Below are positions 51,437 to 54,475 of a stretch of 64,000 nucleotides of DNA, in pieces (the stretch's first letter is position 1; every line of letters begins with the position of its first letter). The notes beneath the pieces were generated by a model. That model was not told the origin of the DNA. It ran no database searches and saw only the letters and a program-made list of their open reading frames with translations. Location: IMG/VR virus record IMGVR_UViG_2563366974_000010; one strand, given 5' to 3'. The stretch comes from a virus (taxonomy: Duplodnaviria; Heunggongvirae; Uroviricota; Caudoviricetes). Position numbers and translations under genes: made by a program.

Positions 51437-51503
51437 CGAGATTAAAGTGCATTAGTTCAGATGCAAATTGACATTTTGTGGCACAGGGTAGAGCTAGCGT
51501 GGT

Positions 51504-51529
51504 TGTCCGCTTTGTGCCAATAGCGGACA
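51504..51529. promoter_or_regulatory. Perfect inverted repeat TGTCCGCT-N10-AGCGGACA upstream of AT-rich cassette
   Basis: 8-bp arms, 10-bp spacer, about 40 nt upstream of gene 1 start. Confidence 0.4.
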
Positions 51530-51567
51530 TTGCTGGCTCATGGTATGTTAGTTTAAGGAGGCAGGTT

Positions 51568-52590
51568 ATGCCCTGTATTTCGCTGTGGTATAATAGTTGC
51601 GCAATTGATACAAGGGAGCGTTACATCGTGAAAATTGTTTTCGAGGTTAATGGAAAGAAAGTTCCACTAAAATCTTTAAAATACATAAGCAAAAAAGATC
51701 AACTCGAAGTAATGAAAAACTGGTTCTTTGAAAACTTTGAAGATCCGGCAAATGCTTGTCCGTATGAAAGTAGAGAAGGTGGCTATGCTTACATATATGG
51801 CGGGCCGTATGATGCGAGCGAAGAACTACAATCCATCTTCGGTCAATATGTTAAATCTGAGTATATTGAGGAATTAGTAGATGAATTACAAACACAATGT
51901 TTTGACTGGTCTGGAAACTCAAATAATATAGATGATTGGTACGATGATGATATCTACGACGCTGTAACGTCTTCCGGTAATCCGTATTTAAAATTCATTG
52001 ATAATATCGATAAAATAAAAAAACTTGCAAAAGATAAAACTGAACAACAGCAAAAAAACCACTTGCTTAGTTTGCTCTACACGAATGTTATTACAGCTTT
52101 GGAAACGCTTTATGTTGAGCTATTCATTAATTCTATAGAGAAAGATGATGTCTACATAGCCAATTGTATAGAAAAAGGTAAGACTGAATTTAAAGTAAGC
52201 AAAGATATTGCTGCGTTGCCTTTCAAGGGTGAACCCATCGAGAAAATTAGGGGAGAGCTAATCAGGTCAATCAAGGAACAGTTGATCAGTGCAAGCTGGC
52301 ATAGCACTAAAAAGGTAATCGACCGCTATGAAGCTACATTCGATATAAAAGTACAAAAAGACTGTCCGATAGAAGCTATTGAATTGGCAACCCTCAATCG
52401 AAATCACTTAGTGCATCGTGGTGGAAAGGATAAAGAAGGGAACCTCGTAGTGATTACAGACCAGGATCTTGAAACGCTGATTGAAAATGCATCGAACCTG
52501 GCAATTATGCTCTACAACAGTTTAAATGTAGCAACGAATAAAACCACCATTTTGCAACCAGATGACAAACCGTTCATTCATGAATTTTAA
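51568..52590 (+). CDS. Hypothetical protein (340 aa), AT-rich cassette gene 1; possible HEPN-like RNxxxH motif
   Basis: AAGGAGG RBS 7 nt upstream of ATG 51568; much lower GC than flanking prophage; C-terminal LNRNHLVHRGG fits Rx4H. Confidence 0.55.
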   Translation: MPCISLWYNSCAIDTRERYIVKIVFEVNGKKVPLKSLKYISKKDQLEVMKNWFFENFEDPANACPYESREGGYAYIYGGPYDASEELQSIFGQYVKSEYIEELVDELQTQCFDWSGNSNNIDDWYDDDIYDAVTSSGNPYLKFIDNIDKIKKLAKDKTEQQQKNHLLSLLYTNVITALETLYVELFINSIEKDDVYIANCIEKGKTEFKVSKDIAALPFKGEPIEKIRGELIRSIKEQLISASWHSTKKVIDRYEATFDIKVQKDCPIEAIELATLNRNHLVHRGGKDKEGNLVVITDQDLETLIENASNLAIMLYNSLNVATNKTTILQPDDKPFIHEF

Positions 52591-52605
52591 TAGCGCAGGT
52601 CATAC

Positions 52606-53607
52606 ATGGATATTCGCACACGAAAGACAAAATTTTTAGAGTCGTTAGATTCAACTGAAGTGATACGCAAAGCAGTAAGTCTCGCTATAGATTGCATTAT
52701 TGATAATCATAATAGTAATGAAGATACCCCCTTAGTTATTACCAGCTATGATGATCTCTGTAGAATCCAGGTGCTAAATTATGTACAGGAGTTTTGCGAA
52801 GCTGCATTCCCTGATATGGATGAATATTACTTTAGTCCTAACATACTTCGCATCAACGGCAAGACTAGTGAAGAAGCTTGTATTAACTTAATTAAACTCT
52901 TAAGAAGTACAAAAGGCATGCTATTCTGGTCCGATGCCCCATCGTGGTTCGCTAGCCTCCCCGACGGATTATTCCATGTTGTTAACATTGATCAAAAAAT
53001 CGTTACTCGCGGCCTTAATAAGAAAAACTCTAAGCCGACAATAATCAATAAAGATTACAGTGTAGATACACTACTATCAGAGCTATTTTTGAATGGCGCA
53101 CACATGGAGCAACCCAACGTACACAACGTTTCTGAGGGAAACATGAAGTTCTATGATGAATGCCATGCTGGATTAATCAGACCAATACCCGCTCCAATAG
53201 GCGCGTCATACGATGAAGAGATCACAATTAATTCTCCAGATTGGCAAAAGCTCGCGTGTGTAGCTTTACGCCGCTATCAGTCGAAGGAATGTCATGACGG
53301 AATGCAATGGGATACAACCGATCATGGTTGGACTGATGTAATCGCGTATCCATTCGTCGAAGAAATACAATCAATGGATAATAGTGGTTATCGACAATGT
53401 TTAGTTGGGCTGGTCACAATAAACAATTCAAATGCAAATTCTCCGTACCTATCTACCGTTTGGATACATCCATTTTATCGCAGGAGAGGGTTATTAAGTA
53501 AGTTATGGCCAAAATTACAAGAGTTATATGGAAGTAACTTCGAAATTGAGCGACCTAATGAAAATATGAAAGCATTTCTGAAAAGTGCGAAACACGCAGA
53601 TTACTAA
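52606..53607 (+). CDS. Hypothetical protein (333 aa), AT-rich cassette gene 2; C-terminal GNAT-like segment
   Basis: C-terminal VWIHPFYRRRGLLSKLWPKL resembles acetyltransferase motif A; N-terminal 230 aa unassigned. Confidence 0.55.
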   Translation: MDIRTRKTKFLESLDSTEVIRKAVSLAIDCIIDNHNSNEDTPLVITSYDDLCRIQVLNYVQEFCEAAFPDMDEYYFSPNILRINGKTSEEACINLIKLLRSTKGMLFWSDAPSWFASLPDGLFHVVNIDQKIVTRGLNKKNSKPTIINKDYSVDTLLSELFLNGAHMEQPNVHNVSEGNMKFYDECHAGLIRPIPAPIGASYDEEITINSPDWQKLACVALRRYQSKECHDGMQWDTTDHGWTDVIAYPFVEEIQSMDNSGYRQCLVGLVTINNSNANSPYLSTVWIHPFYRRRGLLSKLWPKLQELYGSNFEIERPNENMKAFLKSAKHADY

Positions 53608-53923
53608 TTTATGAATCAGTCTGTGGAGTTAGGGTTGGTGTCAACAAGTAGGGTAAGAGCCTCAACGTGATGCTATGCCGACCTGCTCCCTGAGAATTCA
53701 CACAGAAGGCTGCTAGCAATGTCTGCAGATCGCTCAAAGCGGACTAGAAGGTTAGCTTGCGTCGGACTTGGCGTATTTAAAGAAGTGCTGGTGGTGACTG
53801 GTTGTTGTGTTCCATTTCTACAGAACAAAATCACAGAAACTATACCCAATAGTTATATTGAATCAATGATGAGACAGCCTCATATTTATCAGAACTGGTG
53901 TACGTCCAATACAGGAGGTTGTC

Positions 53924-54013: not shown

Positions 54014-54224
54014 TTTTATATTGGCGAGGTGACGGGAGTTAAGTAGAATTGCTGCGGGTGCTTGAGGCTATCTGCCTCAGGCATGAACACCAAAGGCAGA
54101 TAGAGAAAAGCCCCAGTTAATATTACGCGTCCTGCAAGACGCTTAACATTAATCTGAGGCTCAATCTATGAACGGCAAATCTAGGTTAGCCTCTTACGTG
54201 CCGAAAGGCAAGGAGAAGCAGGCT

Positions 54225-54380
54225 ATGAAGCAGCAAAAGGCGATGTTAATCGCCCTGATCGTCATCTGTTTAACCGTCATAGTGACGGCACTGGTAACGA
54301 GGAAAGACCTCTGCGAGGTACGAATCCGAACCGGCCAGACGGAGGTCGCTGTCTTCACAGTTTACGAACCTGAGGAGTAA
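54225..54380 (+). CDS. hok: Hok/Gef-family type I toxin
   Basis: MKQQKAMLIALIVICLTVIVTALVTRKDLCEVRIRTGQTEVAVFTVYEPEE matches Hok family; in-frame upstream extension from 54168. Confidence 0.8.
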   Translation: MKQQKAMLIALIVICLTVIVTALVTRKDLCEVRIRTGQTEVAVFTVYEPEE

Positions 54381-54450
54381 GAGACCCGGCGAGGGAGAAA
54401 TCCCTCGCCACCTCTGATGTGTCAGGCATCCTCAACGCACCCGCACGTAA

Positions 54451-54475
54451 CCCGCTTCGGCGGGTTTTGTTTTTT
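54451..54475 (+). terminator. Intrinsic terminator after hok
   Basis: CCCGC-ttcg-GCGGG then TTTTGTTTTTT. Confidence 0.55.

Follow-up and report, generated by a model that had tools for sequence, protein, structure and literature searches.

A prophage gene pair corresponding to the anti-phage system DS-33 lies in a cassette bounded by terminal inverted repeats

INTRODUCTION

A 64,000-nucleotide stretch of viral DNA (IMG/VR record IMGVR_UViG_2563366974_000010; this whole stretch is referred to as the window) contains two adjacent genes of low guanine-plus-cytosine (GC) content, both annotated as hypothetical in RefSeq, and raises the question of what they do and whether they act together. A first-pass annotation made from the sequence had described them as a candidate novel system of unknown function in which a putative HEPN effector is paired with a GNAT-like partner. 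Judged by sequence identity, the pair is the published anti-phage system DS-33 and is thus already known. In our reading, to which we assign a probability of roughly 80%, gene 1 of this DS-33 cassette encodes a self-contained sensor-effector (DS-33A) that would cut RNA with its HEPN site, and the product of gene 2 (DS-33B) would be accessory or independent.

RESULTS AND DISCUSSION

Identity of the pair and the published phenotype

The DefensePredictor study (DeWeirdt, Mahoney & Laub, Science 2026) lists WP_014639476.1 and WP_000354965.1 in its Table S6, under the working name "GNAT", as the validated defense system DS-33 (PMC13092281); the first-pass annotation had not recognized either protein as a member of a named defense system. 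The window proteins are identical to the sequences of Table S8 at 319/320 residues (DS-33A) and 332/333 residues (DS-33B) (PMC13092281), with the same gene order, gene 2 being directly downstream of gene 1 on the same strand after a 15-nt spacer. The differences are a single substitution in protein A relative to WP_014639476.1 (H218Q) and, in protein B relative to WP_000354965.1, the common P289 in the window versus the rare L289 in the published protein. WP_014639476.1 is the annotation of the same DNA (1 nt apart) in strain ATCC 11775.

In Escherichia coli MG1655, DS-33 lowered the plaquing of T7, T3, Bas67, and Bas26 by 2-6 logs (PMC13092281). The plaque assays of Table S7, expressed as log10 protection in MG1655 in two replicates, gave values for the wild type of 3.8/2.6 (T7), 3.3/2.4 (T3), 4.0/2.0 (Bas67), and 5.0/5.9 (Bas26), together with protection of about zero against T5 (0.8/0.1), and the system had also been protective in a first screen (T7, 3.0; Bas26, 4.7) (PMC13092281). 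Deletion of the HEPN gene brought protection to between -0.5 and 0.5 (about 0 for T7, T3, and Bas67; 0.5/0.3 for Bas26), and the R258A substitution brought it to between -0.3 and 0.8 (T7, 0.8/0.5; T3, about 0; Bas67, 0.5/0; Bas26, 0.7/0.4), whereas deletion of the GNAT gene left protection of 4.8/4.3, 3.3/3.3, 4.0/3.3, and 5.0/4.9 against T7, T3, Bas67, and Bas26, respectively (PMC13092281). R258 (320-residue numbering) is the arginine of the RNHLVH segment that the first-pass annotation had singled out. Its proposal that LNRNHLVHRGG fits the Rx4H motif of HEPN ribonucleases (RNases) was borne out by the loss of defense in this mutant and by the invariance of R278, H283, and R284 (340-residue numbering) in 44 homologues of gene 1. 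The defense role that had been suggested for the pair is likewise supported by these near-identical alleles and their requirement for R258 (PMC13092281, Tables S6 and S7). The authors counted DS-33 among the systems with known defense domains, without main-text discussion or a mechanism (PMC13092281).

These phenotypes bear on a scenario in which the GNAT protein is the toxin and the HEPN-like protein its regulator. Toxins with a GNAT fold, such as the transfer RNA (tRNA)-acetylating TacT and AtaT, exist as a general precedent, and a GNAT fold is indeed present in gene 2. The scenario is nonetheless barely conceivable: cells with the HEPN deletion are viable and undefended, cells with the GNAT deletion keep their defense, the catalytic arginine of the HEPN protein is required, and no gene for a ribbon-helix-helix or DUF1778-type antitoxin is adjacent. 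As it is contradicted by the published deletions (PMC13092281), we rejected it. The features of the locus are collected in Table 1.

Table 1. Features of the DS-33 cassette, in window positions
Feature	Position	Strand	Basis or remark
Left terminal inverted repeat, with hairpin stem 51504-51511 / 51522-51529	51505..51537	+	Homology onset in >10 unrelated flanks
Candidate promoter, extended -10 box TGGTATAAT	51586..51594	+	Inferred from conservation
Shine-Dalgarno sequence AAGGGAG of the GTG start	51612..51618	+	AAGGGAG or AAGGAGG, 9 nt 5' of GTG, kept in cassette relatives
Gene 1 (DS-33A), 320 aa	51628..52590	+	Start of the NCBI annotation pipeline (PGAP), homologue starts, 319/320 identity to published DS-33A
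N-terminal alpha/beta domain, PF18870 (HEPN/RES N-terminal domain 1) type	51637..51915	+	Pfam, family matches, confident AlphaFold2 (AF2) model
All-helical HEPN domain, RiboL-PSP-HEPN type	51919..52551	+	
Rx4H catalytic motif RNHLVHR	52399..52419	+	R258/H263 (320-aa numbering) = R278/H283 (340-aa numbering)
Gene 2 (DS-33B), 333 aa, common P289 allele (WP_000354966.1)	52606..53607	+	332/333 identity to published DS-33B; annotated hypothetical
N-terminal alpha/beta domain of gene 2, orphan	52606..53055	+	AF2 predicted local distance difference test (pLDDT) >88; no sequence match in Pfam or the PDB
GNAT-fold domain of gene 2	53218..53604	+	WIHPFYRRRG at 53461-53490; P289 codon 53470-53472
Right terminal inverted repeat	53712..53744	-	Inverted copy of left repeat; homology end in unrelated flanks

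Start, promoter, and domains of DS-33A

The first-pass annotation was right about the two adjacent genes, one an open reading frame (ORF) running to the stop at 52590 and the other the 333-aa frame of gene 2, and wrong about the start of the first, which it had placed at 51568 to give 340 aa. Close relatives have ATA or TTG in place of the ATG at 51568, three loci (L099, L101, and L103) carry in-frame stops after it, and the GTG at 51628 is the start shared by all homologues, by RefSeq (PGAP), and by the published functional clone; the ATG is therefore not the start. The AAGGAGG reported as a strong ribosome binding site does lie before this ATG, at 51555-51561, and was mis-assigned, the true Shine-Dalgarno sequence being the AAGGGAG of Table 1. 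The candidate -10 box (TGGTA(T/C)AAT) is conserved in most of the cassette-bearing loci, with the exceptions of TTGTAAAAT in L090 and L091, CGGTATAAT in L093, and TGATACAAT in L103, and is kept in L097 and L146, two derivatives from which gene 1 has been deleted. A two-hexamer promoter scan did not call this box because it has no good -35 element.

The domain assignment of gene 1 draws on an alignment of 44 homologues reaching down to 25% identity. PF18870 is matched by 43 of them (E<=0.01), several of which carry the domain as a precomputed annotation, and PF18735 (RiboL-PSP-HEPN) by 22 of the 44, with a best E value of 1e-9. Besides the catalytic residues, E179 and W244-H245 are invariant in this alignment, as are M49, W52, F53, P60, P65, E70, G71, G72, G78, G79, and P80 in the N-terminal region. 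Gene 1 combines a conserved Rx4H motif with an all-helical HEPN fold. The C-terminal domain of DS-33A is HEPN, and no RES domain match was found in the protein. PDB sequence searches with the family profiles of gene 1 and gene 2 returned only chance-level matches, and NCBIfam gave no match for either protein. A check against ordinary phage families, which the first-pass annotation had named as a way to refute its proposal, yielded only the function-unknown PHROGs families 17908 and 16994 for the pair.

A proposed mechanism for DS-33A and its relation to known systems

The PF18870-type domain is promiscuous. It occurs with PIN_8/PIN_12 nucleases, being fused to PIN_8 and lying C-terminal there; in L067 it lies 5' of an RNase E/G-S1 region within a single stop-free ORF that might be two genes merged; and it is found with C-terminal tails that lack a Pfam match, share a GHNNPPE motif, look hydrophobic, and come mainly from Alphaproteobacteria (these arrangements come from loci L058-L081, L067, and L075 and from protein P0116). 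A match to PF18870 together with a RES domain is also the defining criterion of aRES, a two-domain, validated standalone defense protein that depletes nicotinamide adenine dinucleotide (NAD+) (10.64898/2026.01.28.702374). Because the domain is promiscuous and defines the standalone aRES, we read DS-33A as a sensor-effector, and by analogy it might work like aRES, with a regulatory or sensing N-terminal domain controlling a toxic effector. The two share a standalone organization and, in the DS-33A family, a PF18870 match (Osterman et al., 10.64898/2026.01.28.702374); they differ in the effector, which is a RES NAD+ phosphorylase in aRES and a HEPN domain in DS-33A. This arrangement of one N-terminal domain type on different effectors makes the phage triggers of DS-33A and aRES directly comparable and the domain testable as a portable sensor.

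We infer that DS-33A acts as an RNase on an RNA target, with its N-terminal domain as a sensor or regulator, and its defense may work by abortive infection. The HEPN site would be held inactive by, or activated through, the PF18870-type domain and would become active once T7-like phages or certain other coliphages infect the cell. Active DS-33A, most likely as an RNase, would then cut RNA needed for translation, so that phage production would stop. DS-33B, an acetyltransferase-fold protein predicted to be co-transcribed from the same promoter, would most likely have an accessory or independent role.

Within known defense systems, PD-T4-2 contains the same HEPN subfamily, PF18735 being listed for it (Vassallo et al. 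2022, PMC9519451), and the HHblits analysis of the DS-33 authors links DS-33A to PD-T4-2_B, a RiboL-PSP-HEPN protein, with a probability of 96 (PMC13092281). PD-T4-2 combines HEPN with DUF262, whereas the N-terminal domain of DS-33A is of the PF18870 type and its neighbor is a GNAT protein; no match to DUF262 (ParB-like nucleoside triphosphatase) was found in either protein or in their neighbors. The RiboL-PSP-HEPN family was named by Anantharaman et al. 2013, who described it as a distant relative of AbiD and AbiF (PMC3710099).

Several points weigh against the reading of the cassette as DS-33 with a self-contained DS-33A. A HEPN RNase activity of DS-33A is predicted from genetics, namely, the loss of defense in R258A. 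Against PF18870, the window protein reaches 21.7 bits, below the gathering cut-off of 27.4, and it has no PF18735 match of its own at E<=1. The PADLOC check that had been suggested was run with the 2023 models, PD-T4-2 included, and returned nothing for either protein. The published defense came from plasmid constructs (pLAND and pCV1; 'pBAD TRUE' flag in Table S6) and not from the prophage (PMC13092281), and the window DS-33A differs from the published clone by H218Q, which falls in a variable column. The dispensability of DS-33B was measured only with the rare P289L allele, and the conserved, 15-nt-spaced operon argues against a chance neighborhood of the two genes.

Distribution of the two genes and the question of a functional unit

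The first-pass annotation had paired the two proteins as one system and proposed neighborhood conservation as a check. Among the 80 species-level genome loci that contain a gene 1 relative, 77 have neither gene 2 nor a recurrent neighbor, gene 2 standing beside gene 1 relatives only in the E. coli-type copy and in Serratia grimesii; all-against-all neighbor clustering over 81 loci, 3 of which carry gene 2, revealed no conserved partner of gene 1. Viewed from gene 2, most relatives whose gene 2 is about 73% identical or more have gene 1 directly 5', either overlapping it or separated by the 15-nt spacer. The distant relatives, which come from metagenomes (marine ones among them) and show 39-56% identity, occur in varied contexts and never beside a HEPN gene. 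Some of these solo gene 2 relatives adjoin PDC-S06/PrrC-like (PADLOC) and HerA genes; solo gene 2 had no conserved partner, its downstream ORFs (267-279 aa) being mutually unrelated. The enterobacterial loci with gene 2 alone are deletion derivatives of the pair and record two independent deletions. L097 (1422-2682) and L146 (5817-7075) share one deletion that spared the -10 box together with the left end and the final ~78 nt of gene 1, and L147 (5878-7076) carries a different one with gene 2 intact. Since gene 2 of L097 and L146 differs by 1 non-synonymous and 11 synonymous changes, it is under purifying selection without gene 1. Gene 1 is accordingly a self-sufficient effector, in agreement with the published deletions, and gene 2 has a function independent of gene 1, so that the pairing is conserved and not obligatory. 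The check thus went against an obligate two-component or toxin-antitoxin module, as did the full defense of the published GNAT deletion.

A toxin-antitoxin-like arrangement would have DS-33A as a HEPN toxin checked by DS-33B, for example through acetylation of the toxin or its target, by analogy with the type VII HEPN/MNT systems, whose partner modifies the toxin chemically, with infection relieving the check. The operon is conserved, with the fixed spacer or overlapping stop and start codons at 73-100% gene 2 identity, and gene 1 has been lost at least twice with gene 2 kept, as such an arrangement would allow. The GNAT deletion, moreover, gave protection equal to that of the wild type or 10-50x stronger (for T7, T3, and Bas67, in at least one of the two replicates), as if the partner damped the effector; this result is compatible with mild damping or with noise. 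A full antitoxin role could also have been masked by P289L in the tested partner. We nevertheless consider this arrangement unlikely: the GNAT-deletion strain could be plated and was defended, hence viable; a toxin would be expected always to accompany its cognate antitoxin gene, which is not the case in 77 of the 80 gene 1 loci; gene 2 is under selection without gene 1; and its distant relatives lack a HEPN neighbor. The type VII pair HepT/MntA differs further in that the DS-33 partner is GNAT-like, not a nucleotidyltransferase, and is dispensable and usually absent.

Alternatively, the two genes could be independent cargo on one promoter in a mobile cassette, DS-33A being a one-gene defense and DS-33B something separate and functionally unlinked to it, such as a second defense directed at phages not in the tested panel or an acetyltransferase for host or phage proteins. 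The occurrence of each gene without the other, the selection on gene 2 when alone, the PDC-S06/PrrC-like and HerA neighbors of its solo relatives, the existence of ~160-aa stand-alone relatives of its GNAT module, and the absence of a negative effect of the GNAT deletion on defense all fit this possibility. It is harder to reconcile with the tight, conserved spacing of the pair and with the origin of the enterobacterial solo copies of gene 2, which derive from the pair by deletion and not by independent acquisition, and no phenotype of DS-33B is known. We regard independent cargo as quite possible, if short of an even chance, and retain DS-33A as a self-contained sensor-effector as our preferred reading of the cassette.

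DS-33B and its P289 allele

The earlier suggestion that a segment near the end of gene 2 resembles acetyltransferase motif A was supported in part: the GNAT fold is present, the sequence VWIHPFYRRRG is found, and the family conserves H288, P289, and R292. We take the WIHPFYRRxG segment to be the acetyl-CoA-binding motif A of the GNAT fold. Measured against the motif (R/Q-x-x-G-x-G/A), gene 2 reads R292-R-R-G295-L-L, with neither G nor A at the last position. The Pfam model Acetyltransf_1 gives 19.9 bits on gene 2, against a cut-off of 20.7, and matches 26 of 45 homologues. An exhaustive profile search of 1.8 billion representative proteins recovered few full-length relatives, some 12 of the best matches covering most of the profile, together with a wider family of ~160-aa stand-alone proteins that share the C-terminal module and an invariant H-P-x-x-R. 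For the N-terminal region, this search found matches in full-length members of the family and in short N-terminal pieces, and nowhere else. A viral-contig context scan for the ~160-aa relatives recovered only the E. coli operon.

The published DS-33B has leucine at position 289, where the window has proline. P289 is invariant in 44/44 aligned relatives, in 70/70 fetched loci, and in 20/20 members of the wider small-GNAT family, and occurs on at least 1,000 contigs, compared with 31 contigs for L289. Because the tested DS-33B carries P289L at a family-invariant proline, the published wild type and the GNAT deletion may both lack a fully active partner, and the reported dispensability of the GNAT protein may reflect a weakened allele. 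The allele behind the reported dispensability is rare and altered at an invariant proline, so the conclusion merits a retest with the allele of this window.

One further derivative of gene 2 was observed in E. coli (L151, 5644-6606; protein P0148, on 9 contigs), where a 320-aa chimeric ORF fuses a Walker-A N-terminus in frame to gene 2 residues 133-333. By eye, the N-terminus is presumably that of a phage DnaC-type replication protein, and the chimera evidently arose by a deletion that took out gene 1 and the N-terminal domain of gene 2.

Terminal inverted repeats and a possible mobile cassette

The pair lies in a cassette of 2.24 kb (51505-53744) with 33-bp imperfect terminal inverted repeats, each bearing a hairpin, in which 26 of the 33 positions of the left and right repeats pair. 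The perfect 8-bp inverted repeat TGTCCGCT-N10-AGCGGACA, which the first-pass annotation had noticed just upstream of the genes, was confirmed as part of the left terminus of this cassette (51504-51511 / 51522-51529). Perfect 8-bp inverted repeats are common in the window (54 observed versus 14-23 in shuffles); this one is nonetheless real, because it is the first conserved cassette sequence in more than 10 unrelated flanks and recurs as an inverted copy at 53712-53744. The 24-nt core of the left repeat occurs once in the window, with 0 occurrences expected, and the left hairpin is the dominant element of the centroid fold. In at least 10 unrelated flanks, homology to the window sets in at 51503-51509 (mostly 51505) and stops at about 53740-53749 (mostly 53744); these flanks are those of Serratia grimesii (L003), L089, L090, L093, L094, L099, L100, L113, L137, and L147. 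No target-site duplications were seen by eye at the cassette ends in ~10 flank pairs.

Two other roles were considered for the inverted repeat. As an intrinsic terminator, it was rejected since neither strand carries a T-run and the 146-nt leader RNA is not unusually structured (z = 0.6). A role as an operator specific to the DS-33 operon was ruled out because the repeat is part of the 33-bp terminal repeat.

Behind the same left end, related phages and prophages carry other cargo (viral contigs L180-L216, which share the left hairpin, plus L153 and L154): a 595-aa PDC-S39 protein (DUF7380 + DUF4209) and a 310-aa protein without a family match, both ending in an Rx4H-like motif (RNQLAH and RSKAVH, respectively), a protein of the PDC-S15 / FRG-domain type in phage Tritos, and an XRE regulator with a small GNAT in phage Evi. 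Several copies of the 595-aa gene appear to be interrupted by what, from the sequences, we presume to be transposase genes of the IS21 and IS3 insertion sequence families. The suggestion that the slot is a hotspot for variable cargo was supported, as related phages hold PDC-S15, PDC-S39, and another Rx4H protein there. In L137, the DS-33 unit lies between relB and ydfW, and at the same junction of the K-12 prophage Qin (L222, 1986-3000), a ydfV-flxA segment begins with GTCCGCTTTGTGCC and ends with AGCGGAC; different cargos thus occupy one repeat-bounded site. No empty site was found for the L137 insertion, the junction being filled in 1,262 genomes by other sequence between the same ends.

The closest described analogue that we found for this arrangement is the PeSL cassette of T4-type phages, in which non-essential cargo lies between short conserved stem-loop-plus-promoter elements and passes from one genome to another (Arbiol et al. 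2010, PMC2839356). In the DS-33 cassette, a hairpin-bearing terminal repeat followed ~50 nt on by a conserved -10 box similarly bounds exchangeable cargo. The DS-33 cassette differs in that its ends are inverted copies, its hosts are lambdoid prophages, and it also lies in unrelated flanks, e.g., in Serratia grimesii. A broader proposal would make DS-33 one cargo of a transposase-less cassette family with 33-bp hairpin-bearing ends (GTCCGCTTTG ... CAAAGCGGAC) that is swapped at fixed lambdoid-prophage sites and also lands in unrelated flanks such as the Serratia grimesii chromosome, a lambdoid counterpart of the T4 PeSL and a shuttle for defense genes, with DS-33B as a working acetyltransferase partner hidden by P289L. 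We hold this combined proposal to be possible and, on balance, doubtful. The cassette could be exchanged through its repeats by homologous recombination, or a dedicated enzyme could be responsible. The exact, repeat-bounded ends suggest how such defense genes move between prophages and chromosomes.

Prophage setting and minor observations

The gene pair belongs to a Qin/Rac-like lambdoid prophage adjoining ompW in an E. coli chromosome of the phylogroup B2 type, and the same DNA except for one base is found in strains such as ATCC 11775, S88, IHE3034, and APEC O1. Replication-type genes (replisome organiser, DUF977) lie upstream and hokD / DUF968 / rusA / Q downstream. Two descriptions in the first-pass annotation held here: the slot between the replication module and the hok/DUF968/rusA/Q block of a Qin-type prophage agrees with the annotation, hokD included, and the markedly low GC content amounts to 0.35-0.42 over 51.5-54.0 kb versus 0.48-0.57 on either side. 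Of 5,426 complete E. coli genomes, 205 contained the entire 2.17-kb stretch of the two genes and another ~785 shared only part of this query, and deposited phage genomes matched only its first 92 nt.

An Rfam scan gave no match inside the cassette and only sok downstream. The sok antitoxin RNA match (113 bits) lies in the hokD locus just 3' of the cassette, where the downstream matches span 54056-54230 and 54389-54470, and an isrK-like match, also just 3' of the cassette, remained below threshold (27.8 bits versus a cut-off of 50). A perfect TTGACA at 51468-51473 belongs to the conserved prophage backbone, 30 nt 5' of the left end of the cassette, and has a poor -10 partner. Finally, contig L002 (3.3 kb), which is assigned to a metagenome-assembled genome of a Collinsella sp., matches the E. 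coli cassette at 100% identity and most likely is a mis-binned Enterobacteriaceae contig.

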